DNA of 64,000 nt from Escherichia coli (GTDB taxonomy: Bacteria; Pseudomonadota; Gammaproteobacteria; Enterobacterales; Enterobacteriaceae), in assembly GCF_024298765.1 (NCBI RefSeq), contig NZ_CP101210.1; one strand, written 5' to 3'. Both the position numbers and the translations under genes were made by a program. Positions 5,710 through 58,309 of this stretch are shown one piece after another. The notes below the pieces were generated by a model. The model worked only from the letters and a program-made list of their open reading frames with translations, made no database searches and had not been told where the DNA came from. The stretch's first letter is position 1, and each line of letters opens with the position of its first letter.

Positions 5710-5718
5710 GCAATTCTC

Positions 5719-6264
<546 letters not shown>

Positions 6265-6274
6265 TTAATTATTA

Positions 6275-7567: not shown

Positions 7568-7699
7568 CATATCTCCCTTATCTGGACCGATGGCCCACGA
7601 TAATTTAGCAGAATGTTAACAAACTAAAATACACAAAACTACCAGAACCCCGTAGCAACCGGTGCCTGATGTTGACCGTCGGAACAGTCAACATCGCGA

Positions 7700-8989
7700 T
7701 TACGGTTTGAAGTCCAATGGCGCGTTTTTGAACACTTCATATACTGCCTGGCTTGGTGGTTTCGGGATCTTCGCAAGTTTAGCTGCTGCCAACGCAGCTT
7801 GACAAAGTGCGGGATCGCCACCTTCAGGTTTGATATCCAGTAACATACCATCGGGTGCCAGTTTTATGCGCAGCGTACAGGTTTTGCCTGCATAGGACGA
7901 TGCGTCATAGAACTTACTTTCGATAGCAGATTTAATCTGCCCGGCATAGTTATTGATATCGGCCCCTGATGCGCCATTGTTTTTAGTATTACCACTCCCG
8001 GCAGGCGAAGCATTGTTCCCTTTCGCCCCTCCCCCCGTTTTCGGTGCATTCTTACCAGAGCTTAGCTCACCGAAAATATCATCTGCCTCTGCGGCAGCTT
8101 TTGCTGCAGCGGCTTTTTCAGCTGCTGCTTTTGCCGCTGCCGCTTTTTTGTCTGCGGCGGCTTTTTCTGCCGCTGCTTTCTTATCAGCTGCTGCCTTTTC
8201 AGCAGCCGCTTTTTCTGCTGCTTTTTTGTCGGCTGCCGCTTTCTCTGCTGCCGCTTTCTTATCAGCTGCAGCCTTTTCAGCAGCCGCTTTCTTCTCAGCT
8301 TCTGCCTTGGCTTTTTCAGCAGCTTCGGTTGCCGCTTTCTTTCTTGCTTCAGCTGCAGCTGCTTCTGTCGCTTCAGCTTTCTTCTTCAGCGCCGCAGCAG
8401 CAGCCTCGGCTTTTTTCTGCGCTTCGACTGCGGCTTTGGCGGCTTCTGCTTCTGCTTTTTTCTTCGCGTCTGCCGCCGCTTTCTTCGCTGCTTCTTCCGC
8501 AGCTTTAGCATCCGCTTCGGCCTTCGCTTTAGCATCCGCTTCGGCCTTCGCTTTAGCATCTGCCGCCGCTTTCGCTGCCGCCTCTTCCGCTTGCTTCTGC
8601 TTTAACTCGGCCTGTTTTGCGGCTTCTTCAGCCTGCTTTTTCTGCTCCTGAGCCGCTAACCGCTCTTTCTCAAGTTGCTTCAGGCGTTCCTGTTCAGCCG
8701 CTTGTTTCTCACGCAGTTCTTCAGCAGCCTGCTGCTCCTTCATCTTGCGCTGCTCATCAGAACGCTTCGCGCTTGATTCCTGGCTTTGCATACGTTTGTA
8801 CTGCTCAACTACCGCACCTGAATCAACCATGACAGCGTCGATGGACGAACCACCGCCGCCTCCGGCTGAAGCTTCTATATTCTCATCGAACGAACTCCAG
8901 ATCAGCGCCGCAAATAAGATGACATGCAGCACTGCTGAAATAATTATCGCCCGCTTGAGCTTGTCGTTTTGTTCGGTTGCCTTTGACAC
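7700..8989 (-). CDS. tolA: Tol-Pal system protein TolA
   Basis: N-terminal TM anchor, long Ala/Lys/Glu-rich helical domain II, conserved C-terminal domain III; 429 aa. Confidence 0.93.
   Translation of the reverse strand: MSKATEQNDKLKRAIIISAVLHVILFAALIWSSFDENIEASAGGGGGSSIDAVMVDSGAVVEQYKRMQSQESSAKRSDEQRKMKEQQAAEELREKQAAEQERLKQLEKERLAAQEQKKQAEEAAKQAELKQKQAEEAAAKAAADAKAKAEADAKAKAEADAKAAEEAAKKAAADAKKKAEAEAAKAAVEAQKKAEAAAAALKKKAEATEAAAAEARKKAATEAAEKAKAEAEKKAAAEKAAADKKAAAEKAAADKKAAEKAAAEKAAADKKAAAEKAAADKKAAAAKAAAEKAAAAKAAAEADDIFGELSSGKNAPKTGGGAKGNNASPAGSGNTKNNGASGADINNYAGQIKSAIESKFYDASSYAGKTCTLRIKLAPDGMLLDIKPEGGDPALCQAALAAAKLAKIPKPPSQAVYEVFKNAPLDFKP
8080..8620. repeat. Imperfect tandem coding repeats in tolA domain II
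   Basis: Directly repeated units, e.g. the 24-nt unit gcatccgcttcggccttcgctttagca repeated in tandem at about 8510-8560, encoding A/K/E/D repeats. Confidence 0.8.
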
Positions 8990-9053
8990 TCTCGGTTTCC
9001 AAAAACTGTTCGCCTGTTACCCGCTCTCTTTCAAGCAAGGGAAACGCAGATGT

Positions 9054-9482
9054 TTAGATAGGCTGCGTCATTAAACCAACCGATTTCACACCCGCACTAT
9101 GTAACAAGTTCAGTGCTTTAATTATTTCATCGTAAGGCACATCTTTTGCGCCACCGATCAGAAAGACCGTTTTCGGGTTGGCCTTGAAACGGCTGGACAC
9201 TTCCGCCACCACCTGCTCTGGTGGTAAACGCTCCAGACGATCTTTCTCAACCACCACGGTGTACTGACCAATACCAGACACTTCAACAATCACTGGCGGA
9301 TTATCGTTACTGCTCACCGCCTGTGATTCAGTAGCGTCTGGCAGATCGACCTCCACGCTCTGGGTGATGATGGGCGCTGTCGCCATAAAGATCAGCAACA
9401 GCACCAGCAGTACGTCCAGCAACGGTACAATGTTGATTTCGGACTTGAGATCGCGACGACCTCGTCCACGCGCTCTGGCCAT
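9054..9482 (-). CDS. tolR: Tol-Pal system protein TolR (ExbD family)
   Basis: 142-aa ORF, single TM, ExbD/TolR fold; gene order. Confidence 0.95.
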   Translation of the reverse strand: MARARGRGRRDLKSEINIVPLLDVLLVLLLIFMATAPIITQSVEVDLPDATESQAVSSNDNPPVIVEVSGIGQYTVVVEKDRLERLPPEQVVAEVSSRFKANPKTVFLIGGAKDVPYDEIIKALNLLHSAGVKSVGLMTQPI

Positions 9483-42459: not shown

Positions 42460-43294
42460 CAGGGCAAGATTACGAAAGCCCGCTCCCCGTAAGGACTGAC
42501 GCCAGGTAGTTTCTGTCCATAGCTGCCCTTTCTATTCAAACGTGAAATCAATAAGTTCATCAGGGACATCACAAACAATATGAAGACGGGTTTCTTCTCT
42601 GCCGTGACTCTTTTCACTAATTGAGTAACTGTCGTGCTCTGGATTATTTAATTCTTTCAGCGGAAATTTTTCCTCAAAGGCTTTATTAAGCCGCCACCTG
42701 ATTTCCTTTTACAGCGAATAAATAATCACCTCCCTGTTTTTGTATCTTCTCTGCAATATCTTTCTGGCAACTCATCGCATCAGTTGTGATGATTTTTCCT
42801 TTAATATCCAGCATGTTAAGAAGTTCAGGGATAGCTGTAATTTCATTGGATTTCTCATCCGTCCTGATCTGTCCGATGACCAGACTGTGCATTGTTGAGA
42901 ACGCACTAATGACATGAATCGCTCCCCTGCGGCGACTCTTGTCATAAGAATGCCGGAGCGTTTTTCCATCAATTGCAATAACGTCTTTATCATCTGAAGA
43001 ATGGCAGTCACGCATCCAGTTAATAAAGCACTCGTGAAATTTTGAAGGACTGATACAGGATACAACTCTGGCGATGGTATCGTGAACAGGAATACCATTT
43101 TAAAAATCACCATATTGTTTTAAAAAATCGAGATGTGTTTCCCCAAAATCCTCTATATCTTCCCAACCATCTGCACCAGAAATAACGGCACAAATAGTCA
43201 ACAGTAGAATATCCGACAATTTATGTTCCACTTTTCCAGGATTGTCTGTAATCGGGAATAACAGAAATATGTTCCATCAATTTTTTAAGTACCA
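42460..43294 (-). pseudogene. H-repeat (ISAs1-family) transposase pseudogene, copy 1: internal deletion plus nonsense/frameshift
   Basis: Aligns to the intact copy at 45108-46244 but lacks about 330 bp near the 3' end, has the 1-bp insertion shared with copy 3, and a stop (ttttaaaa in place of ttttcaaa) near 43100. Confidence 0.85.
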
Positions 43295-43424
43295 TTTTGT
43301 TCTCCTTAATTATGTAAGGAGTATTTGATCATGTATAAGCAATAAAAAACAGCTTTAGGTAATGAGGAATATCTCAATTTTTAAACATAAAATGCGAATT
43401 GTCTAGTACAAAAAAGCAGCGTTA

Positions 43425-43531
43425 CGTGATCTTTCCCTGAGAGGTACAGGAACTGCGGGAGGAACTTTATCAGGTTAAACAGGGGTTAAGGGGATGCGGA
43501 ACGGGATGTTTAGTGTGCTGAACGAAAGCTA
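43425..43531 (+). pseudogene. SymE-like toxin gene remnant (internal deletion)
   Basis: Retains the leader and GTG start context and the 3' end of the intact copy at 46375-46725; central part deleted, early stop. Confidence 0.7.
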
Positions 43532-43587
43532 AATAATAAAAAAGCCGGGAAGATCTTATCTTTCCCGGCCATCTTGCCATACATTAA

Positions 43588-44022
43588 TTATTTATGAATA
43601 TAATATAACTGAACATCATATTCATTATCACTTAAAACTATTAGTCGATCGGGAAATGTAAATGCTAATGAAAGATCATATGTTTCATTTATCGAAAACA
43701 AACTCAATATGAAATTTGAAAAATTTTCGACATGAAGAGATATGCAAACATCTCCATTATAGAATATATTGCAAAGAATATCTTTTTTCACATTCAGTGT
43801 ACTTTCAACATCTCTCGCTAGATCATTAATATTTAAAGGTAAATTGAAAACTCTCCTTTCAATAATATTATCGGTTTTATTTATTGCCATTAGCATTTCT
43901 CGATGCCACATGAAGTCATTCTTACGTAAGAATGATACATCAAAGGAAGTGACACCATTTAATTTAGAAGCATAATCTTTTGCTCTAATTAAATTTAATT
44001 TATCTTCAAGGCTAATTTTCAT
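43588..44022 (-). CDS. Putative Rhs-toxin immunity protein (orphan cassette 1)
   Basis: 144-aa low-GC ORF starting 4 nt before the stop of the orphan toxin reading frame; typical rhs-CT/rhsI arrangement. Confidence 0.6.
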   Translation of the reverse strand: MKISLEDKLNLIRAKDYASKLNGVTSFDVSFLRKNDFMWHREMLMAINKTDNIIERRVFNLPLNINDLARDVESTLNVKKDILCNIFYNGDVCISLHVENFSNFILSLFSINETYDLSLAFTFPDRLIVLSDNEYDVQLYYIHK

Positions 44023-44470
44023 AATATATATGATGATCCTTAGTTACAGGGTCATTGATCTTCTGATATCTATCACTTTTGAAATCGTATGTTCTAGGAT
44101 CAGCGCCCGGTTTAGGTTGTCCTGCATGTGCGTGAGGGCCAGGTGCCCTAGGATCTGCCGTGTGCTCGACTACAACTTTCTTACGTCCGTAGGCATCTGT
44201 ATATTCATAATATCGCCCATGAGACCCTAAATCTTCCGAATATTTATAATTTGTTTGTCCCCTTCTTCTAGGATCATTTCCAACGGTCCATTGCCTATTA
44301 GGTTGCTGTGAACGAGGTATGCCCGCAAGATCTTTTGCTTTATTTAGTGCCTGACGACGGTTTCTTAATTCACCACATTTAAGACCAAGCGGATCTATCC
44401 AGCTTACTGGATTAGGCGCGTAAGCATATAAGTTTAGCCCCCCCGCCAGCCCTATCGGGTCGGGTTACGT
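44011..44470 (-). pseudogene. Orphan rhs C-terminal toxin remnant (no start codon; in-frame stop before the DPxGL motif)
   Basis: Reverse-strand frame reads ...[46 protein letters not shown] followed by a 125-aa unique domain ending at the immunity gene; not in the ORF track because it lacks a start. Confidence 0.7.
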
Positions 44471-44634
44471 AAATGTTCCACAGTCCGAGTCGTAGTACCT
44501 CAGAAGGTTGCAGTGCAATCCCGCCTTGCGACATCAAGGCATAGTTTCAGAAAAAGTAAGGAGCAATCACCATACCCCAATTCACTGGGTGCTAAATAAT
44601 ATCTGGTAACATCCCTTACTTCAATTCTATTTCA

Positions 44635-45030: not shown

Positions 45031-45107
45031 TTTAATAATCCAAATGTAAATTACTTAAAATACCCTCTGCCTCATTCCAGGCATTGACATGGGAACCCAG
45101 GGAAAGA

Positions 45108-46244
45108 TTACGAAAGCCCGCTCCCAGCAAGGACTGACGCCAGATAGTTTCTGTCCATGGCTGCTTTTCGCATCTTACGTCTTAACCCTGCCTTGAATAC
45201 CTTATCATTCGTCAAAATATTAATAGCGATGTGCCGTATCCCTGAAAATAATTCTGCTGCATTTCCTCTTCTTATTTTGCAGTCGTCTTCATTCATTACC
45301 ACGTCCAGACGCCAGTGCAGCTTATTCTCCACGTGCCAGTGGTTTCGGATTGCTGTGGCGAACTTCTCTGCGGTTAAATCAGCAGAACTGATATAATATC
45401 TGACCGTCATTTCTGGCTCTTTCTTTTGTTCTGCTATTATTGACCGAAAGGAGACTGCCACGCATAATTTCTTCAGACCTTTCCATTCAAACGTGAAATC
45501 AATAAGTTCATCAGGGACATCGCAAACAATATGAAGACGGATTTCTTCTCTGCCGTGACTTTTTTCACTAATTGCGTAACTGTCATGCTCTGGATTATTT
45601 AATTCTTTCAGTGGGAATTTTTCCTCAAAGGCTTTATTAAGCCGCCCCTGATTTCCTTTTACAGCGAATAAATAATCACCGCCCTGTTTTTGTATCTTCT
45701 CTGCGATATCTTTCTGGCACCCCATCGCATCAGTTGTGATAATTTTTCCTTTAATATCCAACATGTTAAGAAGTTCAGGGATAGCTGTGATCTCATTGGA
45801 TTTCTCATCCGTCCTGATCTGTCCGATGACCAGACTGTGCATTGTTGAGAACGCACTAATGACATGAATCGCTCCCCTGCGGCGACTCTTGTCATAAGAA
45901 TGCCGGAGCGTTTTTCCATCAATTGCAATAACGTCTTTATCATCTGAAGAATGGCAGTCACGCATCCAGTTAATAAAGCACTCGTGAAATTTTGCAGGAC
46001 TGATACAGGATACAACTCTGGCAATGGTATCGTGAACAGGAATACCATTTTCAAAATCACCATATTGCTTCAAAAAATCGAGATGTGTTTCCCCAAAATC
46101 CTCTATATCTTCCCAGCCTTCTGCACAAGAAATAACGGCACAAATAGTCAACAGTAGAATATCCGACAATTTATGTTCCACTTTCCAGGCTTGTCTGTAA
46201 TCGGGGATAATAGAAATATGTTCCATCAATTTTTTAAGTTCCAT
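45108..46244 (-). CDS. H-repeat-associated protein (ISAs1-family transposase), intact copy 2
   Basis: 378-aa ORF of the YhhI/YdcC/YbfD H-rpt type; element left end about 45094 (aagattacgaaagcccgc). Confidence 0.9.
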
Positions 46245-46374
46245 TTTGTTCTCCTTAATTATGTAAGGAGTATTTGACCATGTATACGCAATAAAAAACA
46301 GCTTCAGGTAATGAGGAATATCTCAATTTTTAAACATAAAATGCGAATTATTTAGTACAAAAAAGCAGCGTTAC

Positions 46375-46725
46375 GTGATCTTTCCCTGGTTAATCATGGC
46401 TGAACACGATATTACGCCAGAAATCACCATTTCCAAAACACAGCGCCGCTATAAAGTCGGCTATGTCAGAGCCCGCCACATAAACAGCAAAACCTACATG
46501 ACCACGTACTACTCACGACACCCCAGCCTGAACCTCAAGGGCGACTGGCTGAAAGAGGCCGGATTTGATACCGGGCGGGGTGTCACGGTGAAGATTTCGG
46601 AGGGGTGCCTGACCATCATCGCTGACAGTGACGAGGTGCAGGAACTGCGGGAGGAACTTTATCAGGTTAAACAGGTGGTTAAGGGGATGCGGAGCGGGAT
46701 GTTTAGTGTGCTGAACGATAATTAA
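46375..46725 (+). CDS. SymE-like toxin (AbrB/SpoVT-fold type I toxin family), intact copy
   Basis: 116-aa ORF from GTG (or 109 aa from ATG at 46396); contains the SymE-family core LKGDWLKEAGFDTGRGVTVKISEGCLTI. Confidence 0.75.
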   Translation: MIFPWLIMAEHDITPEITISKTQRRYKVGYVRARHINSKTYMTTYYSRHPSLNLKGDWLKEAGFDTGRGVTVKISEGCLTIIADSDEVQELREELYQVKQVVKGMRSGMFSVLNDN

Positions 46726-46776: not shown

Positions 46777-47172
46777 TTATTCAGGAAATTTTCTATTTTT
46801 ATATGATGACCATAAGTGAGTGATCGACCAAGAGTTTTCCTTTCCGAGTACAAAACTTTTGGAGATTATCTCAATATCATCAGATATACGCGAAGATATT
46901 TCAGAATTATTAATCACCCTGAATGAGTATTTAAATGCCTTTTCTCGCAAGGAATCAATAAACTCAATATCATCATCCTGAAAACTTTCCTTATCTAATG
47001 AATTAAACTCACTCATCCAGCAATCATCAAACTCCGGTTCATCTCTTGAGTCTAATGCACTATCAACATTTAATGATTTAAGAAAATCAAAAAATGACGG
47101 GGTGGATAAACAGTTATCAATTTCAATTAGCTTATTATTAATCATCACATTAACCCTTGTCCTTTGAGCCAA
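46777..47172 (-). CDS. Putative Rhs-toxin immunity protein (orphan cassette 2)
   Basis: 131-aa acidic low-GC ORF immediately 3' of and overlapping the GHH-type orphan toxin. Confidence 0.6.
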   Translation of the reverse strand: MAQRTRVNVMINNKLIEIDNCLSTPSFFDFLKSLNVDSALDSRDEPEFDDCWMSEFNSLDKESFQDDDIEFIDSLREKAFKYSFRVINNSEISSRISDDIEIISKSFVLGKENSWSITHLWSSYKNRKFPE

Positions 47173-47790
47173 ACCTCTATTAAATCAACAGCCTTGGATG
47201 GTGTCACATTAGTACCTAGCGTATAAGTTCCATTTGGAGATTTAACATCAACTCTGATGTCATCTAATTTTGAATACGCTTTTCTGTAAGCATCAAATAA
47301 CTCTTTATCCGAACCAAGGAAATCACCTTGTCTTGGACCTATCACATCTCGTTCCGCATGATGTAAACGCCAGTGATTATGTTCTGGATTTTCTCCTCTA
47401 GGGAATAATGTTGGGCGAGTTTTATCAGATCGGGAAACTTCAAACGGACGTCCTTTAGATTTACGAACCGCAGGAACATGATGTCCAGATTCACTCACGC
47501 CCATACACTTCTTCGTTAATCCAAGGGGATCGATCCAGCTTAACGGATTCGGTGCATAAGCATACAGGTTTAACCCGCCTCTTAGCCCTATCGGGTCCGT
47601 TACCATGAACCGCCCGACATCCGGATCATAGTACCTGTGCAGATTGTAATGCAGCCCCGTTTCCCTGTCGAGGTACTGTCCCTGGTAGCGCAGGTTCTGC
47701 TCCACCCCGCCGTGGTCCTTCTCCTGTATCGTGTTACCCCAGACCTGATACCCCGTCTCCCACACGATTTTCCCGTCACTGTCCGTCATC
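47145..47790 (-). CDS. Orphan rhs C-terminal fragment with GHH-signature HNH/EndoVII-like nuclease toxin domain
   Basis: Core end ([38 protein letters not shown]) followed by a unique domain containing SGHHVPAV and EHNHWRLHH; 5' end truncated by the H-repeat copy 3 insertion; the track Met is fortuitous. Confidence 0.65.
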
Positions 47791-47802
47791 TCCAGGGCAA
47801 GA

Positions 47803-48940
47803 TTACGAAAGCCCGCACCCCGCAAGGACTGACGCCAGATAGTTTCTGTCCATGGCTGCTTTTCGCATCTTACGTCTTAACCCTGCCTTGAATACCTTAT
47901 CATTCGTCAAAATATTAATAGCGATGTGCCGTATCCCTGAAAATAATTCTGCTGCATTTCCTCTTCTTATTTTGCAGTCGTCTTCATTCATTACCACGTC
48001 CAGACGCCAGTGCAGCTTATTCTCCACGTGCCAGTGATTTCGGATCGCTGTGGCGAACTTTTCTGCGGTTAAATCAGCAGAACTGATATAATATCTGACC
48101 GTCATTTCTGGCTCTTTCTTTTGTTCTGCTATTATGGACCGAAAGGAGACTGCCACGCATAATTTCTTCAGTCCTTTCCATTCAAACGTGAAATCAATAA
48201 GTTCATCAGGGACATCACAAACAATATGAAGACGGGTTTCTTCTCTGCCGTGACTCTTTTCACTAATTGAGTAACTGTCGTGCTCTGGATTATTTAATTC
48301 TTTCAGCGGAAATTTTTCCTCAAAGGCTTTATTAAGCCGCCACCTGATTTCCTTTTACAGCGAATAAATAATCACCTCCCTGTTTTTGTATCTTCTCTGC
48401 AATATCTTTCTGGCAACTCATCGCATCAGTTGTGATGATTTTTCCTTTAATATCCAGCATGTTAAGAAGTTCAGGGATAGCTGTAATTTCATTGGATTTC
48501 TCATCCGTCCTGATCTGTCCGATGACCAGACTGTGCATTGTTGAGAACGCACTAATGACATGAATCGCTCCCCTGCGGCGACTCTTGTCATAAGAATGCC
48601 GGAGCGTTTTTCCATCAATTGCAATAACGTCTTTATCATCTGAAGAATGGCAGTCACGCATCCAGTTAATAAAGCACTCGTGAAATTTTGCAGGACTGAT
48701 ACAGGATACAACTCTGGCAATGGTATCGTGAACAGGAATACCATTTTCAAAATCACCATATTGCTTCAAAAAATCGAGATGTGTTTCCCCAAAATCCTCT
48801 ATATCTTCCCAGCCTTCTGCACCAGAAATAACGGCACAAATAGTCAACAGTAGAATATCCGACAATTTATGTTCCACTTTCCAGGCTTGTCTGTAATCGG
48901 GGACAATAGAAATATGTTCCATCAATTTTTTAAGTTCCAT
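47803..48940 (-). pseudogene. H-repeat (ISAs1-family) transposase pseudogene, copy 3 (frameshifted)
   Basis: Split into two ORFs (47803-48156 and 48332-48940) by a 1-bp insertion (aagccgccacctg versus aagccgcccctg in the intact copy). Confidence 0.85.
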
Positions 48941-49080
48941 TTTGTTCTCCTTAATTATGTAAGGAGTATTTGATCATGTATAAGCAATAAAAAACAGCTT
49001 TAGGTAATGAGGAATATCTCAAATCTTAAACATAAAATGCCAATTATTTAGTACAAAAAAGTAGCGTTACGTGATCTTTC

Positions 49081-49570
49081 CCTAAAACGCAGACCCAGTT
49101 GTGCATAGTACACATGGTACGCAACAGCCTGCGGTTCGTGACGTGGAAAGACTATAAAGCGGTAACCCGTGACCTGAAACAGGTTTACCGCGCGGCCACG
49201 GAAGAAGGCGTGTTGCAGGCGCTGGATGCGTTCGGGAAGGAATGGGATGCACGGTACCCGCAGATAAGTCGCAGCTGGCGGGCAAACTGACCGAATGTTG
49301 CCACCTTCTTCGTGTACCCGGAGGCGATCCGAAAGGTTATCTACACCACTAACGCAATCGAATCGCTGAATAGCGTCATCAGACATGCGATAAAGAAAAG
49401 GAAAGTGTTCCCGACAGATGAATCGGTGAAAAAAGTGGTGTGGCTGGCTATCCAGTCAGCCTCACAGAAATGGACGATGCCACTTCAGGACTAGCGGATA
49501 GCCATGAGTCGCTTTATTATCGAGTTCGGTGACCGCCTTGACGGTCACTTCTGAGAAAGGCATTTACACA
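49081..49570 (+). mobile_element. IS256-family (mutator-type) transposase gene remnant, 5'-truncated and frameshifted
   Basis: ORFs 49099-49290 and 49312-49494 encode the C-terminal part of an IS256-type transposase (...YPQISRSWRAN / IRKVIYTTNAIESLNSVIRHAIKKRKVFPTDESV...); begins abruptly at the shared leader sequence. Confidence 0.75.
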
Positions 49571-49619: not shown

Positions 49620-49946
49620 TTAATCACCCGGCTTCTCCCAACATTTTATCTTTTCTATTTCTCTCTCAATATCATCCATATCATCATCTCCAAGATCGGT
49701 ATTAAAATTTTCAGTAATAACCCTTCTTATTTCAGCCAACCGATGTGTAATATTTTTATCATCAATAAATTTAGTGGTTTCTTTAAAGTAAGAATTCAAC
49801 AATTTATCATCAATAACGTTCTGCTCTATACCATTGAAATAATACCTTGCAATATTCTTAAGTGATATCAATATGTACTCTACCTCACTTAGAATATAAA
49901 GGGCATCCTTCCCGGGTATATTAATTACATCATTGTTTTTATTCAT
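49620..49946 (-). CDS. Putative Rhs-toxin immunity protein (orphan cassette 3)
   Basis: 108-aa acidic low-GC ORF 1 nt downstream of the 601-aa orphan rhs. Confidence 0.6.
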   Translation of the reverse strand: MNKNNDVINIPGKDALYILSEVEYILISLKNIARYYFNGIEQNVIDDKLLNSYFKETTKFIDDKNITHRLAEIRRVITENFNTDLGDDDMDDIEREIEKIKCWEKPGD

Positions 49947-49947
49947 A

Positions 49948-51753
49948 TTATTTACGCCGAGTTATTTTTGCATTATCAGAAAGAACAATATCACCTTTCA
50001 CAGTCAATTCATCTATATGGTATCGAGGGTTTGTTACCCACTCTAATTGCTCGTTAGGTACATCTGTTTCCACATAATCTCTACCTTTCCCACGACCTAT
50101 TTGATATTTCGCCTCTATGTCTACTTGACTGAGTGGTTTTTTATTCGCAGGTTCCAAATATACACGACCGTTATCATGCGCCTTAATTATCCCACTTTCA
50201 GCAATCGCATTTGAACCTTTACGATTAGTATAATGCCGCACACGAGTAGTTCCATTACAGAGCTCTTTTTTTAATCCGAGTGGATCAATATATTTCAGCG
50301 GATTAGGCGCATAAGCATATAAGTTCAACCCACCCGCCAGCCCTATCGGATCCGTTACAATGAACCGCCCGACATCCGGATCATAGTACCTGTGCAGATT
50401 GTAATGCAGCCCTGTTTCCCTGTCGAGGTACTGTCCCTGGTAGCGCAGGTTCTGCTCCACCCTGCCGTGGTCCTTCTCCTGTATCGTGTTACCCCAGACC
50501 TGATACCCCGTCTCCCACACGATTTTCCCGTCACTGTCCGTCATCTCTTCCGGCGCGCCGTTCACATCCGTGTGAAAATACAGTATCCGGTTCGGGCCCT
50601 CTTTGCCCGCCTTATCCACCCGCGCCAGCGGTTCATAACTCCCCGGGTCCCTGTAGATGTACAGGCTGTCTGTTCCCTCCGGCCTGCTCTCCTGCGCCAG
50701 CCGCATTCCGTCCCATAAAAATGCCGTCCGGTTGTACGGTTTACCGTCAGGGCTGATGTGCTGTTTTTCCGTCCGCCTCCCCAGCGCATCGTACACATAC
50801 CGGTACGTTCCCCGCGCTGTCGTCACTTCCACCATCCGGTGTTCCGCATCATAACGGTAACTCTGCGTGCCGCTCCGCCCCTCCTTTTCCACCGCACGGC
50901 CAAATTCGTCGTAACGGTAGTGCACACCACGGTAAGACATCAGCCGGTTGAACGGCACCACGCTGTTTTCTGCCGTGGCCCTTTCCCCCGCGCGCCGCCC
51001 CAGCAGGTTTCCCGCCGCGTCGTACTGCCAGCTCGCCAGATACCCCTCATCCTCCGAGCGGCACGCCGTGATGCGCCCCGTGGGGTCGTAGAAGTAATCC
51101 GTTTCCCCCCGCCGGCTGTGCCGCGTCTTCAGCAGTTCATCCTCGCCACTGTAGCTGTACTGCCGGTCCGTGAACGTCTCCGGTACCACCCCGCGCATCC
51201 CGCTGTATGTCTCCCTGCGCTTCAGCCGCCCGGCGGGGTCGTAAAGCTGCCGCGTGCTCAGTCGCCCCTGACTTCTGAGCACTTCACGGTGCAGGGCGTC
51301 ACGAGTGAACTCGCTGATGACCTCCCGGTCCAGATTTATCTGCTGGAGATGGCCGCTGCCGTAGTACAGATGACGCTGCGTTCTGCCGTCCGGAAAGGTG
51401 GTGGCTGTCCGGTTGCTGAGTTCATCGTACTGATGGGTCAGGACGCCCTGCGCCGTCTCCTCAGTCAGCATCCGCCCCAGTCTGTCGTAACTGAAACGGA
51501 TAATCTCCGGTGCGTCTGTTTCCCCGGCATCCGACCGTCGGCGGCGGATTTCCAGTAACTGGTCTGCCGCATCATGGACGTATTCCGTACGGCTATCGGC
51601 TGTCTCCTTTGCCGTGAGCCGGCCCGCCGCATCACGTGCCAGCCGGTGGCGGATTTCACCGCCCCGGTCCCCGGTGAACACCACTTCCGTGACCGCGTTC
51701 AGCGCGTTGTAGCGGTACGTCTGGCGGCAGCCGTCGTGCTGCCAGCGCAGCAT
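49948..51753 (-). CDS. Orphan rhs fragment: about 480 aa of Rhs core plus a distinct C-terminal toxin domain
   Basis: YD-repeat core near-identical to the main rhs, then DPIGLAGG...DPLGL and a unique roughly 108-aa tail (KKELCNGTTRVRHYTNRKGSNAIAESGII...); rhs homology starts at DGCRQTYRY, so the track Met is fortuitous. Confidence 0.8.
   Translation of the reverse strand: MLRWQHDGCRQTYRYNALNAVTEVVFTGDRGGEIRHRLARDAAGRLTAKETADSRTEYVHDAADQLLEIRRRRSDAGETDAPEIIRFSYDRLGRMLTEETAQGVLTHQYDELSNRTATTFPDGRTQRHLYYGSGHLQQINLDREVISEFTRDALHREVLRSQGRLSTRQLYDPAGRLKRRETYSGMRGVVPETFTDRQYSYSGEDELLKTRHSRRGETDYFYDPTGRITACRSEDEGYLASWQYDAAGNLLGRRAGERATAENSVVPFNRLMSYRGVHYRYDEFGRAVEKEGRSGTQSYRYDAEHRMVEVTTARGTYRYVYDALGRRTEKQHISPDGKPYNRTAFLWDGMRLAQESRPEGTDSLYIYRDPGSYEPLARVDKAGKEGPNRILYFHTDVNGAPEEMTDSDGKIVWETGYQVWGNTIQEKDHGRVEQNLRYQGQYLDRETGLHYNLHRYYDPDVGRFIVTDPIGLAGGLNLYAYAPNPLKYIDPLGLKKELCNGTTRVRHYTNRKGSNAIAESGIIKAHDNGRVYLEPANKKPLSQVDIEAKYQIGRGKGRDYVETDVPNEQLEWVTNPRYHIDELTVKGDIVLSDNAKITRRK
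50362..51735. repeat. 1.37-kb direct repeat, copy A (orphan rhs core)
   Basis: Essentially identical to 52880-54253 (offset 2518 bp); the antisense track ORFs 50392-50718 and 50758-51558 recur identically at 52910-53236 and 53276-54076. Confidence 0.9.
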
Positions 51754-51774
51754 CTGCCCAACCGCAGCGACACG

Positions 51775-51978
51775 CCGGTGATCAAAATCAGCGCCAAATG
51801 GCTGAGAGAAGCGGGATTTGAGATCGGCACGGGCGTTACCGTGAAGATCTCGGAAGGCTGCCTGATCCTGCTTGCAGATAACAACGGAGTACAGGAACTG
51901 CGCAGGGAACTTTATCAGGTTAAACAGTCTGTTAAGGGGATGCGGAACGGGATGTTTAGTATGCTGAACGATAATTAA
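51775..51978 (+). pseudogene. SymE-like toxin gene 3' fragment
   Basis: Encodes ...IKISAKWLREAGFEIGTGVTVKISEGCLILLADNNGVQELRRELYQVKQSVKGMRNGMFSMLNDN; 5' part replaced by the orphan rhs junction. Confidence 0.7.
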
Positions 51979-52043
51979 ATAATAAAAAGCCGGGAAGATT
52001 TAATTTCTTACCCGGCTTTTGATAACTTAATAATATTATAATC

Positions 52044-52424
52044 CTAAATCAATCTTTTTTTTAATTCCCTTATTTCAGGAGTTAATGCAAAACTGTCTTC
52101 TAAAGATTCGTCATCCAAGGCCCAGTAATTAATAAGATCTATATGATTTTTATAATTATCAAGCAGAGTGTTGAGTGCTTTTACAATAACTTTATCTGAA
52201 GGAGGTACTCCAGAAGATAATAAATCATTACAGACATCAAGGGCTAAAGTCATTAATTCATTCTTCCCTTTTTGTGAGTAGCCATTATTTAAATATGCAG
52301 CAATATATTTACTTAACCACTCTTTAGTTCGATATTTTTCAGGCAGTTCATAAGCCCAATCTTGTGTAAACTTATCACTCACTGGTACACCAAGTTCACT
52401 ACAGATTTTATCTATTTCATTCAT
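52044..52424 (-). CDS. Putative immunity protein for the main Rhs toxin
   Basis: 126-aa low-GC ORF 18 nt downstream of the main rhs stop. Confidence 0.65.
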   Translation of the reverse strand: MNEIDKICSELGVPVSDKFTQDWAYELPEKYRTKEWLSKYIAAYLNNGYSQKGKNELMTLALDVCNDLLSSGVPPSDKVIVKALNTLLDNYKNHIDLINYWALDDESLEDSFALTPEIRELKKRLI

Positions 52425-52441
52425 ATATATCCTTCATTATT

Positions 52442-55400
52442 TTAGTTGTCGTGTGATGAATTGAATGGGAACGATGTACGTACAGAACCGTCGGGTTTTA
52501 CAACAACCCTTGCCATATCTGGAACTACCTCTGTCCCATCAGGTAAATAACCTCGACTTTTTATATTTGTAGGCAATGGCACATCATGCACACCTGGTCC
52601 TTTTTTGGCAACAGAAGCAATAAAATCAGCAGCAGAATTATCATCGAGATATTGTCCAACTTGATGACCTTTATTTCTGGCACGATCAATTAACTGATTT
52701 GGTTTCATTTTCTGTCCGTGTTCAGAAAAGGTGTGACCGTATGTAGGCTTACTTTTTGGATTTCCCCATTTGAAGTCAGATTTAGGACACAATCCAAGTG
52801 GGTCGATCCATGACAGTGGATTAGGTGCATACTGATATAAGTTTAACCCGCCTCTCAGCCCTATCGGGTCCGTTACCATGAACCGCCCGACATCCGGATC
52901 ATAGTACCTGTGCAGATTGTAATGCAGTCCCGTTTCCCTGTCGAGGTACTGTCCCTGGTAGCGCAGGTTCTGCGCCACCCCGCCGTGGTCCTTCTCCTGT
53001 ATCGTGTTACCCCAGACCTGATACCCCGTCTCCCACACGATTTTCCCGTCACTGTCCGTCATCTCTTCCGGCGCGCCGTTCACATCCGTGTGAAAATACA
53101 GTATCCGGTTCGGGCCCTCTTTGCCCGCCTTATCCACCCGCGCCAGCGGTTCATAACTCCCCGGGTCCCTGTAGATGTACAGGCTGTCTGTTCCCTCCGG
53201 CCTGCTCTCCTGCGCCAGCCGCATTCCGTCCCATAAAAATGCCGTCCGGTTGTACGGTTTACCGTCAGGGCTGATGTGCTGTTTTTCCGTCCGCCTCCCC
53301 AGCGCATCGTACACATACCGGTACGTTCCCCGCGCTGTCGTCACTTCCACCATCCGGTGTTCCGCATCATAACGGTAACTCTGCGTGCCGCTCCGCCCCT
53401 CCTTTTCCACCGCACGGCCAAATTCGTCGTAACGGTAGTGCACACCACGGTAAGACATCAGCCGGTTGAACGGCACCACGCTGTTTTCTGCCGTGGCCCT
53501 TTCCCCCGCGCGCCGCCCCAGCAGGTTTCCCGCCGCGTCGTACTGCCAGCTCGCCAGATACCCCTCATCCTCCGAGCGGCACGCCGTGATGCGCCCCGTG
53601 GGGTCGTAGAAGTAATCCGTTTCCCCCCGCCGGCTGTGCCGCGTCTTCAGCAGTTCATCCTCGCCACTGTAGCTGTACTGCCGGTCCGTGAACGTCTCCG
53701 GTACCACCCCGCGCATCCCGCTGTATGTCTCCCTGCGCTTCAGCCGCCCGGCGGGGTCGTAAAGCTGCCGCGTGCTCAGTCGCCCCTGACTTCTGAGCAC
53801 TTCACGGTGCAGGGCGTCACGAGTGAACTCGCTGATGACCTCCCGGTCCAGATTTATCTGCTGGAGATGGCCGCTGCCGTAGTACAGATGACGCTGCGTT
53901 CTGCCGTCCGGAAAGGTGGTGGCTGTCCGGTTGCTGAGTTCATCGTACTGATGGGTCAGGACGCCCTGCGCCGTCTCCTCAGTCAGCATCCGCCCCAGTC
54001 TGTCGTAACTGAAACGGATAATCTCCGGTGCGTCTGTTTCCCCGGCATCCGACCGTCGGCGGCGGATTTCCAGTAACTGGTCTGCCGCATCATGGACGTA
54101 TTCCGTACGGCTATCGGCTGTCTCCTTTGCCGTGAGCCGGCCCGCCGCATCACGTGCCAGCCGGTGGCGGATTTCACCGCCCCGGTCCCCGGTGAACACC
54201 ACTTCCGTGACCGCGTTCAGCGCGTTGTAGCGGTACGTCTGGCGGCAGCCGTCCGGATTTATCTGCTCCGCCAGACGGTCCAGCACGTCATGGCGGAACC
54301 GGTAGCTTTCTCCGTTCTCGTTTGTCAGCGTGACCAGACGCCCGTAAGCATCGTACCCGAACGCCGTCCTGCGCCCCGTCGCGTCTGTCCGGCTGCGCAC
54401 CCGGCCCTGCCCGTCCCGCTGCCAGCGCGTTATCCTCCCCATCGGGCTGGTGTACTTCACCAGCCTGCCCGCCGCGTCCGACTGGTAATTCACCGTGCGG
54501 CCGTCCGCCAGTATCACCTCCGTCAGGTGGCCGCTGTCGTCATACCCGTAGCGCGTGCTGTGGCTCTGCGCGTCTGTCATCCGTATCAGCCGCGTGCGTT
54601 CGTCGTAGAACCAGGCCGTCTGCGAGCCGGAACAGTCCGTGTGCCGCATGAGCTGCCCGTCTTCGTTCCACTGAAGGTATTTATTCCCCCCGCGCGCATC
54701 GGTTATCTGCACCACCTGGCCGTGGCGGTCATACTGATACCGGGTGTTCTGCTGCAGCGGGTCGGTCACCGCAAGAAGATTGCCGCGTTCATCGTACTCA
54801 CAGCACCAGCTGTTCCCCGCCGCGTCCACCTCCGTTTCCGGCTGGTGCCACACCGGGTGCCACTGTGTCTGTGCCACCCGCCCCAGCGGGTCGTGCGTCT
54901 CCGTGATATGCCCCTGCCGGTCATACACATAGCGCCATTTGCCGCCCTGCGCATCGGTCATTCCCAGTAACAGCCGTTCTTCGTCGCTCCAGCGGAACGT
55001 CGTCACCTGCCCGGCTTCGTCCTGGTACGCCGTCACCTGATTCTGCGCGTCCCACTGATGATAACGCGTGCGCCCCAGCCCGTCCGTCACGCACAGCCTG
55101 CGTGACGCCAGGCTCCACGCCAGCCGGTACTGTTCACCGCTGTCCGTGTGGTGCCCCGTCACCCGCCACGCTGCGTCATCCGGGCCTTCATACCAGCTCC
55201 ACTGGTAATAATACCCTTCGCCGCCCGGCTGGCGGTGCAGGGTCATGCAGTGGTTTTCGTCGTAAGCAAACTCGCGCAGCAGGTGTCCCGTGCTGTCGTA
55301 CACGCCGTTCAGGTCGCCGGCCTCGTCATAGCGGTAACGACGCAGCAGTAAAGGAGCCGTCTCAGGGAAATGCTGATAAATCTGTGTCACCCGCCGGGGA

Positions 55401-57100
55401 TGCGCCGCCAGTTCATAATGCAGACGGATGCACGGACGCTGCTGTTCACCGCTGATTTGCGTGATGCGCCCCAGCTCGTCGTAGTACAGATTCAGACAGT
55501 TGCTGTTGCGGTCGCCCAGCATTTTCAGCCGCTGGCGCTGCGGGTGATGCGGGTCGGCTTCAAACAGAAAAAACTGCCCGTCATCGCTGCTGATAAGCCA
55601 GTGCCCCTGCTCACCCCGCCTTACCGCCAGTCCTTCGCCGGGGCTGTAAAACCCGCTCCCCGGCAGCACGGCCTCCATATCCAGGCGTCGCCCCATGCCC
55701 GACACAAAGGTCATGCAGTTTTCGTCAGCAGTACCCGGCGTGCGCCCGAGGCTGACTTCATACATCACGCTCCAGCCCTGCCCGAACATCCCTTCCGTGC
55801 GGTCGTCACGACTGCTGTACACGCGCTGCCAGTCCAGCGGAAAGTGGCCCGGCAGACTGAAATCGAAGTCATCGTCATCGGCCAGATATTTGGCTCCGGT
55901 GGCGGCATTGACCGGATGCGGAAGGGCACTGATGGCCTTCTGCGTCATCACCCCCATCCCGACACTGGCAGCAAAACAGGCGATTTTAGAAAGCATTTTG
56001 CCCGGGCGAAGAAACATCAGCGCCACGGTTGCCACCAGGGTTATCTGCGACCTGCCGCTTCTGATATCCCTGACCACCAGTAACGGACCGCCAATGCGGA
56101 CATCCGGTGACACAAACGCCCCGTTCCCCGGCTCATTCACCACCCTGGCCTCGCAGGTGCAGCGTGCCCCGCTGCGTGCCGCCGGCTGGCTGTTGATACG
56201 CACATCCCGCGCGCCTTCCGCGATATATTCCGCTGCGGGCGGTTCATCATCGCCTTTGAACAGATTACTGATGCTGCCAATAACCGCATTCACTCCCTGA
56301 AAGGCGGTTTCCAGCATACCGTCCGGACTCAGCAGGTTAAGGGCCGTTCCCAGGGGGTCATCCAGAAAGGCGGCTTTTTTTTGTGCGAGAAACTGCGTCA
56401 GTGAGGAGGGATGTTTATGGCAGTCGATTTTATCGTCAGGGGTCGGGGTGGAGCCCGGGGCCGCACTGGCCACGGTGGGCTGCCATAGTTCCGACACAAA
56501 ATGTGTCACGCCATCCACCATTTCAGAACGCCCTTCTTCCGTACTGAGCTGGTCGTGCAGCGCCCGGGACATCAGCACAGGCCCTGTCACCGGGTTAACC
56601 GCCAGGGCTATGGCCCCCGCCATTTCCAGATATTCCCCGGCCACATCCAGGAACGTTCTGGCATCCTCCTGACGCTGCGCTTCTTCCTGTTCCGCCTTCG
56701 CCTGCGCCTCCTGCGCCTCAATGTCCTGCCGCGATGCCGCAGTCGCCGCGGCCCGCGCGGCAGGTTTGCTGTTGATCCATGTGTCGCCAGAGCCGGTGAG
56801 GATGTAACCTTCAATCTGAGGCGGGAAAAGCATATTTGCGAGGTCTGAACAGACTTCGCTGACCGTGTCTGTCACGCCGGTGTACACCATCGCCACACCC
56901 GCCACAAAACCGGTCAGCACGACGGCCGTGCACCCCATCGTGATCCCCACTGACGCCGCCAGTAACGAGGTTGTGCCGACAATGAGGGCATCAATAACGA
57001 CATTTGCGGCCACCTCCAGCACCGCCCCCAGCACATCTGCCATAAACGACGTATGCAGCAGGGCATCACCCTGCCTTGCCGCCCAGAATGCCTCTTCCAT
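52442..57100 (-). CDS. Full-length Rhs polymorphic toxin with N-terminal prePAAR-like motif and hydrophobic segment (T6SS effector-like), YD-repeat shell and variable C-terminal toxin domain
   Basis: 1552-aa ORF; N-terminus MEEAFWAARQGDALLH fits AARxxDxxxH, followed by about 55 hydrophobic residues and PAAR-containing segments; YD repeats; core ends PxxxxDPxGL (WIDPLGL) about 115 aa before the stop. Confidence 0.85.
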   Translation of the reverse strand: MEEAFWAARQGDALLHTSFMADVLGAVLEVAANVVIDALIVGTTSLLAASVGITMGCTAVVLTGFVAGVAMVYTGVTDTVSEVCSDLANMLFPPQIEGYILTGSGDTWINSKPAARAAATAASRQDIEAQEAQAKAEQEEAQRQEDARTFLDVAGEYLEMAGAIALAVNPVTGPVLMSRALHDQLSTEEGRSEMVDGVTHFVSELWQPTVASAAPGSTPTPDDKIDCHKHPSSLTQFLAQKKAAFLDDPLGTALNLLSPDGMLETAFQGVNAVIGSISNLFKGDDEPPAAEYIAEGARDVRINSQPAARSGARCTCEARVVNEPGNGAFVSPDVRIGGPLLVVRDIRSGRSQITLVATVALMFLRPGKMLSKIACFAASVGMGVMTQKAISALPHPVNAATGAKYLADDDDFDFSLPGHFPLDWQRVYSSRDDRTEGMFGQGWSVMYEVSLGRTPGTADENCMTFVSGMGRRLDMEAVLPGSGFYSPGEGLAVRRGEQGHWLISSDDGQFFLFEADPHHPQRQRLKMLGDRNSNCLNLYYDELGRITQISGEQQRPCIRLHYELAAHPRRVTQIYQHFPETAPLLLRRYRYDEAGDLNGVYDSTGHLLREFAYDENHCMTLHRQPGGEGYYYQWSWYEGPDDAAWRVTGHHTDSGEQYRLAWSLASRRLCVTDGLGRTRYHQWDAQNQVTAYQDEAGQVTTFRWSDEERLLLGMTDAQGGKWRYVYDRQGHITETHDPLGRVAQTQWHPVWHQPETEVDAAGNSWCCEYDERGNLLAVTDPLQQNTRYQYDRHGQVVQITDARGGNKYLQWNEDGQLMRHTDCSGSQTAWFYDERTRLIRMTDAQSHSTRYGYDDSGHLTEVILADGRTVNYQSDAAGRLVKYTSPMGRITRWQRDGQGRVRSRTDATGRRTAFGYDAYGRLVTLTNENGESYRFRHDVLDRLAEQINPDGCRQTYRYNALNAVTEVVFTGDRGGEIRHRLARDAAGRLTAKETADSRTEYVHDAADQLLEIRRRRSDAGETDAPEIIRFSYDRLGRMLTEETAQGVLTHQYDELSNRTATTFPDGRTQRHLYYGSGHLQQINLDREVISEFTRDALHREVLRSQGRLSTRQLYDPAGRLKRRETYSGMRGVVPETFTDRQYSYSGEDELLKTRHSRRGETDYFYDPTGRITACRSEDEGYLASWQYDAAGNLLGRRAGERATAENSVVPFNRLMSYRGVHYRYDEFGRAVEKEGRSGTQSYRYDAEHRMVEVTTARGTYRYVYDALGRRTEKQHISPDGKPYNRTAFLWDGMRLAQESRPEGTDSLYIYRDPGSYEPLARVDKAGKEGPNRILYFHTDVNGAPEEMTDSDGKIVWETGYQVWGNTIQEKDHGGVAQNLRYQGQYLDRETGLHYNLHRYYDPDVGRFMVTDPIGLRGGLNLYQYAPNPLSWIDPLGLCPKSDFKWGNPKSKPTYGHTFSEHGQKMKPNQLIDRARNKGHQVGQYLDDNSAADFIASVAKKGPGVHDVPLPTNIKSRGYLPDGTEVVPDMARVVVKPDGSVRTSFPFNSSHDN
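52880..54253. repeat. 1.37-kb direct repeat, copy B (main rhs core)
   Basis: Essentially identical to 50362-51735. Confidence 0.9.
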
Positions 57101-57118
57101 GTCCCGTTCCCTGTGTGA

Positions 57119-57349
57119 TTAATTCGTCCCGGCTTCCTGCCGCATCCTGAAGCGCAGATTCTTTTTAATTTCAGCCCAGCGCGTCATATCAGCCGGGGTC
57201 AGCGGTGTGGTTCGGGCGTAGGTGAAGGCCATCATGACCCGCTCACCCGGCAATACAAATGCCACCTGACACTGGTACACCTGCTCGTTACCCCGGAGAA
57301 ACTGGCTCTGTATTTGCAAACCGCCTCATTGAGATAATATTCCGTCATA
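57119..57349 (-). pseudogene. Possible degenerate Eag-type (DUF1795-like) chaperone gene remnant upstream of rhs
   Basis: ATG at 57347-57349 opens MTEYYLNEAV... (resembles the DUF1795 N-terminus) but stops after 38 codons; a second frame continues 66 codons to 57119; total length is about half that of an intact Eag gene. Confidence 0.25.
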
Positions 57350-58102
57350 ATAGAAGTCGTCCTTTTTAATAAATGAATTATTTATTGACAGGTTCTGTTT
57401 TTTAATCATGAATGTAATGTCTATCACCGCTTTACAGCACTCTTTATCTTTCAAGCCGTAATCACTAATAACATTAAGCAATTACCCATATTTACAATGA
57501 CCGGAACTGATATGCCGTTATGTATTTAACAATCCCAACATATTCACCATACAAATAAAATCACGAGTAACAAACACACTACCGCCTCCATATAAAAAAT
57601 GGACAGCTTATAAAATTGCATCTTGCATAGAAAGGGCTGAGATATCGAGTGTATTTTAATTATCAACTATAAATGTTGAATATTTTCATTAACAGAAACA
57701 CATCTTATCCCATTAGATATGTTAACAATCAATTATTCTTAACATATCACTAAAGTATATATTACTCTCTTTACTATCTGTTTTTATTGCGGTAGCGATA
57801 TTAATAGCAAAATTCGGAATTTATTTAGATGCTGGAATAAGAAAAAGTGATGGCGGCTTTCTCACCTTACCCTGAAGTTTCAGGAAAGTGTGTAAGGAAG
57901 GATGCAACCTAACTGGAGATTTCTGAGGATCTAGTTGCTTAGAGCGACAATGAAGGTGAACGCATCCAGAGTAGTCCTATGAAAGGATACTATTGAAAAT
58001 TGATGCTAAAACAGTGATTAAATGAACAACACCATGGAACCCGTTGATTCAAAACGCCTAAACCAGCCCCCTGATACGAGGCTGGCTTAAACGCGCAGGC
58101 AA

Positions 58103-58309
58103 TCAGTAAAAATCACCCGTTGCCTTTTCGGCCTGATCCATCCACACCGGTTTCTCGCTGGTTTTCGACCAGACGCGGTGCAGGTAGCTGTAAAAGCGGG
58201 CGCGGTCTTTCCAGAAAAGCATGAAAGGCAGCGCCAGAACGCCCGCTGCAACCGCATAAGTACGGCGTAAAAAGATAAGCCATGCAGGATATTCTCTGTA
58301 GAGTTCCAT
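58103..58309 (-). CDS. ybfA: Small inner-membrane protein YbfA (DUF2517)
   Basis: 68-aa [38 protein letters not shown]... Confidence 0.85.

Follow-up and report, generated by a model that had tools for sequence, protein, structure and literature searches.

The rhs locus described here lies within a 64,000-nucleotide (nt) stretch of Escherichia coli DNA (RefSeq assembly GCF_024298765.1, contig NZ_CP101210.1), which is referred to as the window. Most probably, it represents the main/orphan architecture of an rhs polymorphic-toxin locus, in which a near-perfect direct repeat, shared by a full-length main rhs gene and a downstream orphan rhs, would act as the recombination handle that drives both gene conversion between the repeat copies and a deletion by which the toxin tip of the main gene is swapped. 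Both allelic states, i.e., the duplicated form and the single-copy fusion, are present in natural genomes; the repeat copies carry concerted patterns of single-nucleotide polymorphisms (SNPs), and the single-copy alleles are mosaics.

The locus corresponds to the E. coli rhs site between kdpFABC/ybfA and ybfD/ybgA/phrB, with the rhs genes all located on the minus strand. Complete E. coli genomes that match the window at 99.8% identity served as the source of the RefSeq annotation. A truncated DcrB-related gene is followed by the main rhs, a presumed immunity open reading frame (ORF), a hairpin, a symE-like gene on the opposite strand, the orphan core with its ART-HYD1 tip, and a second presumed immunity ORF; further downstream there are ISAs1/H-rpt copies, two more orphan tips, another symE-like gene, and ybfD. 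The features of the two rhs units are as follows:

52442-57100, minus strand: main rhs, full length, 1552 amino acids (ORF, Pfam; 'RHS repeat-associated core domain' protein in RefSeq)
52880-54253, minus strand: repeat copy in the main rhs, the last 1.37 kb of its core, with weaker homology down to 52791
52442-52789, minus strand: main toxin tip (C-terminal tip, CT), 115 amino acids, following the DPLGL motif encoded at 52804-52790
52044-52424, minus strand: putative immunity gene of the main toxin, 126 amino acids, directly after the CT (RefSeq hypothetical protein WP_001002164.1)
51989-52016, no strand: G+C-rich hairpin bordered by runs of A and T, where the immunity and symE-like genes converge (folding)
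51736-51978, plus strand: 5'-truncated symE-like gene, 80 amino acids, whose first base abuts the truncated core (SymE family, WP_001696838.1)
50362-51735, minus strand: repeat copy forming the 5'-truncated core of the orphan rhs, with weaker homology down to 50273
49948-51753, minus strand: orphan rhs-CT ORF, 601 amino acids, core fragment plus ART-HYD1 tip (ORF, Pfam, motif)
49620-49946, minus strand: putative immunity gene of the orphan ART-HYD1 toxin, 108 amino acids (ORF; WP_001039055.1)

When compared without gaps, the direct repeats at 50362-51735 and 52880-54253, each 1374 nt long and offset by 2518 bp, differ at four positions (50410, 50413, 50456, and 50463 in the numbering of the orphan copy), and a perfect tract of 1272 nt extends over 50464-51735 of the orphan copy. 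BLAST self-comparison extends the homology to 50273-51735 versus 52791-54253 (1463 nt, 98.4% identity, no gaps), the additional 89 nt being the more diverged core end that encodes DPIGL...DPLGL. Identity of this degree across 1.4 kb is far beyond chance. Outside the homology limits the flanks are unrelated (about 20-35% identity), and the edge at the higher coordinates is abrupt (51735/51736 and 54253/54254). The 2518-bp period is composed of the 1374-nt core segment and a 1144-bp cassette containing the main toxin tip, the immunity gene, the terminator hairpin, and the 5'-truncated symE-like gene. The near-perfect 1.37-kb repeat with divergent flanks, which the initial annotation had proposed, is thereby borne out, and the antisense ORFs said to recur in both copies are found at 50392-50718 and 52910-53236 as well as at 50758-51558 and 53276-54076. 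Its labels "main" and "orphan" rhs agree with the ORFs, the Pfam domains, and the RefSeq annotation of relatives.

The main gene is an Rhs polymorphic toxin gene with RHS/YD repeats, a PF03527 core end, a DPxGL motif, and a variable tip. Pfam matches of its product are RHS_repeat (9.8e-80, in 10 stretches), DUF6531, PAAR (3.5e-08), and PF03527 (7e-14, at amino acids 1333-1369); DPIGL is found at amino acid 1411 and DPLGL at amino acid 1433, followed by the 115-amino acid tip. For this tip, no significant Pfam or PDB sequence match was obtained, with an RNase-A-like hint remaining below threshold (E 0.068), and a family assignment was therefore dropped. By analogy with the rhs-CT/rhsI architecture (PMC3150448), ORF 52044-52424 is regarded as the putative immunity gene.

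Orphan rhs-CT/rhsI modules were defined by Poole et al. in 2011 (PMC3150448), and the second unit has the composition of such a module: the N-terminal delivery region is missing, the core and the DPxGL motif are kept, the tip is distinct, and a small ORF follows. The orphan ORF starts with an ATG at 51753, 18 nt inside the symE fragment, and contains RHS_repeat, PF03527, and Tox-ART-HYD1 (1.3e-13) domains. The latter match (PF15633; 51.8 bits versus a cut-off of 25) covers profile positions 1-96 of 97 at amino acids 505-592 of the orphan. The 107-amino acid tip behind the DPLGL motif, encoded at 50286-50272, is unrelated to that of the main gene. RefSeq treats the orphan as an RHS pseudogene with incomplete N-terminus. 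In all genomes examined, the ART-HYD1 tip is accompanied downstream by WP_001039055.1, be the tip orphaned or fused to the main rhs; this constant co-occurrence, together with the match to a Pfam toxin domain, suggests that the tip would be toxic and that the downstream ORF would confer immunity.

Between the two units, the symE-like gene at 51736-51978 matches the Pfam family SymE_toxin (3.5e-11; 43.5 bits versus a cut-off of 29) at profile positions 13-52 of 54 only, while a fuller paralogue at 46396-46725 (109 amino acids) covers positions 1-53. The junction thus truncates both the rhs core and symE, and since the 5' end of symE is missing there, a functional symE/symR pair is unlikely. The hairpin at 51989-52016 was missed by a consensus terminator scan and was revealed by folding (-21.2 kcal/mol; z = -5.0; 0 of 200 shuffles as stable). 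It is likely a bidirectional terminator that would shield the orphan from read-through, which suggests that the orphan would be insulated and silent until recombination occurs.

To find the allele in which the main core is fused to the orphan tip, a synthetic deletion product, composed of window positions 49620-51735 joined to 54254-55300, was searched in 5426 complete E. coli genomes. It is present in 29 of them (99-100% coverage, 98.7-99.9% identity), in 10 as a single contiguous piece, and the ART-HYD1 tip there forms part of a full-length 1544-amino acid rhs at the same locus. In each genome inspected, this is the same kdp-ybfA...ybgA-phr site, the rhs has the ART-HYD1 end and the same immunity gene, and the array downstream of the single-copy rhs is otherwise unchanged. 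A copy of the main tip or of the main immunity gene elsewhere was found in none of the 29 genomes. The 2518-bp deletion that the initial annotation had predicted to fuse the main core to the orphan toxin therefore exists as an exact product in nature. The duplicated form, as in the window, occurs in about 44 genomes. A count of 73 genomes for this form was discarded; it comprises the approximately 44 duplicated and the 29 single alleles, because the repeat of a single allele aligns to both copies of the query. Likewise, a conserved junction between symE and the rhs core in matches of about 54% coverage turned out to be an artefact of joining separate BLAST pieces, the core piece having matched the main core; true carriers of the junction were found with a dedicated 240-nt query.

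For an evaluation of the exchange between the copies, 20 repeat copies from 13 alleles were aligned, including seven duplicated alleles for comparison within genomes. Over the 1374 nt, the orphan and main copies of one genome differ at 0 (strain 21F61), 4 (window), 6 (strains CH4793 and D10), or 10-11 sites (GPEC1352, APEC O2-211, and strain 104), and orthologous copies of different genomes differ by up to 12-16 sites. Haplotype blocks are common to both copies of a genome: CCTGC at positions 50724/50806/50809/50869/50999 is found in both copies of the window, TTCTG in both copies of CH4793 and of D10, and GACCTGG at 51148-51496 in both copies of 21F61; in addition, the main copy of 21F61 carries orphan-type bases beside the tip. 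With 0-11 differences within and up to 16 between genomes, the copies of these seven alleles evolve in concert. Such a haplotype pattern would be the signature of repeated non-reciprocal exchange between the copies.

The age of the junction is relevant in this context. In strain PEC395, the symE/core junction is found at the same locus with 92% identity and an additional 14 nt between CCGTC direct repeats; both the main and the orphan positions are taken by other tips and immunity genes than in the window, and the two core copies are 97.5% alike, each being about 95.5% identical to those of the window. In strain 06-00048, the junction occurs with yet another tip behind the core fragment. At a second rhs site, between yncG and pptA, relics of the junction (63-288 nt of core beside the same 80-amino acid symE) are present in SC477, CI5, MP1, and many others. 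From the occurrence of the junction at 89-92% identity in divergent genomes and at the yncG-pptA locus it follows that the junction is old. The K-12 rhsE pseudogene was considered as a source of the junction and rejected, this region of the window having no DNA similarity to the K-12 rhsE locus and K-12 RhsC sharing only about 28% protein identity.

The single-copy alleles are mosaics which, when read from core to tip, switch from the main-type to the orphan-type SNPs of their closest duplicated relatives. The switch intervals are 50413-50443 in MDR_56, 50456-50998 in CT265, 50456-51147 in 200177, and 51304-51517 in 20Ec-P-124. Over about 12 kb of flanking DNA, duplicated 21F61 and single-copy 2014C-3338 are separated by 2 SNPs, with both being about 31-34 SNPs away from the rest, and duplicated strain 104 shows no differences from single-copy 20Ec-P-124 and 14EC020. 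Furthermore, both allelic states are seen on each of three downstream structures. These are the full array; an array that has lost orphan 2 via ISAs1 recombination (GPEC1352 duplicated, 200177 single); and an array in which the deletion reaches as far as ybfD (21F61 duplicated; 2014C-3338 and 14EC020 single). Deletion thus looks recurrent. The mosaic SNP patterns imply several independent crossovers in the repeat, which would be the most economical explanation because the junction is unique and could not be re-created repeatedly.

According to the proposed mechanism, non-reciprocal exchange between the copies would maintain their near-identity and account for the 1272-nt perfect tract. A reciprocal crossover, presumably of the RecA-dependent type, would delete the 2518-bp unit, which comprises one copy of the repeat along with the main tip and immunity gene, the terminator, and the truncated symE. 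The delivery core would thereby be fused in frame to the ART-HYD1 tip, bringing a silent toxin onto a delivery core, and the old toxin/immunity pair would be lost.

Several explanations have to be weighed against this scenario. The initial annotation had left open whether recent duplication or gene conversion was the cause of the near-identity. Gene conversion is favoured, as suggested by the distances of 0-11 sites within genomes and of up to 16 between orthologues combined with an old junction; the haplotypes shared within each genome agree with this part of the proposal, while the age of the junction and the 97.5% identity of the PEC395 copies speak against recent duplication. A very recent tandem duplication in the lineage of the window, with no gene conversion involved, would fit the mere four differences, all of them within about 100 nt of one end. 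It is, nevertheless, a very improbable explanation, given that divergent genomes and another locus contain the same junction (89-92% identity), that relatives of the same structure show from 0 to 11 differences, and that derived variants occupy both copies within one genome but neither copy in other genomes. As the junction is shared with divergent genomes and a second locus, a recent one-off duplication was rejected as the main explanation. Even less credible is an assembly artefact, either a spurious duplication or a collapse of the repeat in the single-copy allele. Repeats of 1.4 kb do exceed short-read and insert lengths, and the expectation of the initial annotation that the repeat would collapse in short-read assemblies is a reasonable one; yet, about 44 independent complete assemblies are duplicated, 29 are single with no main tip or immunity gene elsewhere, and the single-form alleles differ in their mosaic patterns and have their own SNPs, with one allele also carrying a frameshift.

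A more serious, though still unlikely, explanation inverts the order of events. The single-copy core-ART-HYD1 gene would be ancestral, and the duplicated allele would have arisen by C-terminal displacement, in which a circle carrying a core fragment, a new tip, an immunity gene, and symE integrates by a single crossover in the core, followed by horizontal spread. ART-HYD1 would have been pushed downstream, and the single-copy genomes would be unmodified ancestors. Displacement is a published model (PMC2935791), Campbell-type integration yields exactly an A-B-A structure, and cassettes do move, considering that 06-00048 contains the same two tips in different order and context; moreover, the flanks are too alike to rule out an exchange of alleles. 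On the other hand, the junction is unique and old, and hence not created repeatedly; the single-copy mosaics have at least three different switch intervals, as deletion predicts; and the two states co-occur on three downstream backgrounds and in two well-separated flank lineages, for which many 2.5-kb transfers would be needed.

Some points weigh against recurrent deletion and its consequences as proposed. A duplicated allele could enter a strain with the deleted allele by horizontal transfer and homologous recombination in the flanks, which would also scatter the two states, and the direction is unproven for any single pair of alleles. The genomic backgrounds are poorly resolved, with 0-8 SNPs in about 12 kb of flanks for most genomes, and the detail is limited to the 13 alleles. 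In principle, polishing with short reads may make repeats look more alike than they are, and the unit could collapse during assembly. Delivery of the main Rhs through a type VI secretion system (PAAR, VgrG, and Eag-type chaperone) is a further point, and a PAAR motif is present in the protein. The upstream gene at 57119-57322, annotated as DcrB-related and possibly encoding an Eag-type chaperone, is truncated to 204 nt, as compared with an intact 453-nt form in related loci; vgrG is not adjacent to the main rhs in the window, while the related loci at the yncG-pptA site possess vgrG and an intact DcrB-related gene. Because of the truncated gene and the missing neighbour, secretion of Rhs in the lineage of the window is uncertain, and the protein may not be deliverable there, which would weaken the functional consequence of tip swapping.

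The recombination of main and orphan rhs genes is already known (Jackson et al. 2009; Koskiniemi et al. 2014), and the locus is no new kind of system. The closest counterpart is found in Salmonella Typhimurium LT2, where recombination within a 522-bp, 95%-identical main/orphan repeat leads to a chimeric rhs that deploys the orphan toxin (PMC3967940). The pair of rhs-main (STM0291) and rhs-CT-orphan (STM0292) has the same layout as the window, with a full-length rhs, an immunity gene, and an orphan that contains a piece of core as well as its own tip and immunity gene. In either case, the main core acquires the orphan tip by homologous recombination within the core sequence common to both genes, at the expense of the main immunity gene, a loss which exposes LT2 recombinants to their siblings (Koskiniemi et al. 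2014, PMC3967940). The differences concern the repeat, which in the window is longer and more alike (1374 nt at 99.7% versus 522 bp at 95%), the truncated symE-like gene and the hairpin between the units of the window, and the evidence, which is comparative from natural alleles here and experimental in LT2. Moreover, a duplication that preceded recombination allowed the LT2 recombinants to retain the ancestral locus; in the natural E. coli alleles, the main tip and immunity gene are simply gone.

Arrays of dissociated tips were described by Jackson et al. in 2009, with core fragments being direct repeats of the upstream core and with recombination and circular intermediates being proposed (PMC2935791). 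The window resembles these arrays in that an intact rhs is followed by core fragments which vary in length and precede non-homologous tips (PMC2935791). In that study, dissociated tips were generally absent from E. coli clade I loci, and position 4 (nfrB-cusS) was analysed (PMC2935791); the locus of the window corresponds to position 5 (kdpA-phr), here with a different rhs of the PAAR/DUF6531 type, and, unlike in that study, population data now reveal the products of gene conversion and deletion. The rhsC/ybfO region of K-12 is situated at the same site (ybfA...ybfD-ybgA-phr) and likewise comprises an rhs, an immunity gene, an orphan with a core fragment, and H-rpt/ISAs1 copies. The K-12 orphan ybfO shares 1045 nt with the core of rhsC at 97.2% identity. 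RhsC, with its protein identity of about 28% to the Rhs of the window and no DNA similarity in the core, nevertheless belongs to a different rhs clade, and symE-like genes are absent from that region. A likeness also exists to silent-cassette recombination systems such as the pilE/pilS and mafB arrays of Neisseria, with one expressed gene, promoterless variants downstream, and RecA-dependent exchange through conserved sequence (PMC2935791). For the locus of the window there is no evidence of programmed high-frequency switching, and a whole toxin/immunity module is swapped rather than antigenic segments.

Rhs loci are toxin armouries that exchange tips between strains. What the present locus adds is evidence from E. 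coli populations for gene conversion and recurrent fusion/deletion. The two outcomes of main/orphan recombination are seen here in nature with unusual clarity, with about 44 two-cassette and 29 fusion genomes, and the graded homogenisation of the repeat, from 0 to 11 differences, records gene conversion. Natural populations of E. coli now show what laboratory evolution showed in Salmonella, and the strain set offers a tractable basis for determining how often tips are switched and how much fitness the loss of the old immunity gene costs. From a practical point of view, misassembly is likely to result from the repeat, and annotation records the fragment as no more than a pseudogene.

Two further core-end copies are present downstream in the window:

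47516-47792, minus strand: third core-end copy (orphan 2), truncated by ISAs1, within ORF 47145-47825 (BLAST; Pfam PF03527)
44385-44523, minus strand: fourth, degenerate relic of the core end, located ahead of an HNH/endonuclease VII toxin fragment (self-comparison, annotation)

The third copy is 91.7% identical to the orphan copy and 93.8% identical to the main copy; its existence had been noted initially, with its length put at about 215 bp instead of the actual 277 nt. The fourth relic has 71-76% identity.

Three ISAs1/H-rpt copies lie in direct orientation at 45097-46387, 47792-49083, and 43000-43439, the first two being 97.4% identical over 1292 nt. Natural deletions between such copies are seen in GPEC1352 and 200177, which are devoid of orphan 2, symE, and ISEc1; in 21F61, 2014C-3338, and 14EC020, everything down to ybfD is missing. 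In the stretch covering the 5' end of rhs and the sequence upstream of it (56500-58300), a divergence of about 5% from the window is seen in the single-copy strains MDR_56 and CT265, as opposed to none in other strains; this has the appearance of a patch imported by recombination.

SymE genes in RHS neighbourhoods were noted by Kawano et al. in 2007 (PMC1891008). The window contains three symE-like genes or relics (46396-46725, 51736-51978, and 43441-43598), each of which lies just 3' of, and antiparallel to, an rhs immunity gene. The unit of tip, immunity gene, and symE recurs in many E. coli rhs loci of this clade (CI5, EC77, 06-00048, and PEC395), with the 80-amino acid form of symE always being attached to a core relic. 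The order of the cassettes differs between strains. In 06-00048 (5424-9431), a tip and immunity gene similar, though not identical, to the main cassette of the window form an orphan that is cut by ISEc1, and an extra cassette is located between the 1.4-kb core fragment and the ART-HYD1 tip, the latter starting exactly at DPIGL.

The search for episomal copies of the locus yielded no match in phages, and its plasmid matches were confined to one mislabelled chromosome and one 8.7-kb circular record; such copies were consequently rejected. The circular record, the 'plasmid' NZ_CP055112.1 of Shigella flexneri, consists solely of an rhs core fragment, a tip, an immunity gene, symE, a helix-turn-helix (HTH) gene, a probable primase remnant, xerC, and one ISEc1. 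Rather than a replicon, it seems to be a circle that arose between two copies of ISEc1 or else a by-product of assembly.

In related loci outside the window, an island of symE, HTH, primase, and xerC genes is located behind the main rhs cassette. In four records with four different displaced tips (L006, 1361-1700; 06-00048, at about 12152; L012, at about 10029; NZ_CP055112.1, at about 4633), the xerC side of the island adjoins the end of the rhs core at the identical DPIGL-coding nucleotide, and this junction of island end and core end is present in 56 of the 5426 genomes. Some orphan cassettes begin exactly at DPIGL, which is also the point from which the two repeat copies of the window diverge sharply. 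It is tentatively suggested, as a rather doubtful possibility, that the truncated symE could be the footprint of an island of this kind, comprising symE, an HTH regulator, a primase, and a XerC-type tyrosine recombinase, which would deliver tip/immunity cassettes site-specifically at DPIGL. One ancestral integration followed by cassette swapping could give the same pattern of island and core. C-terminal displacement was proposed by Jackson et al. with no known integrase (PMC2935791); if the suggestion were true, the island would represent an integrase-driven form of this process.

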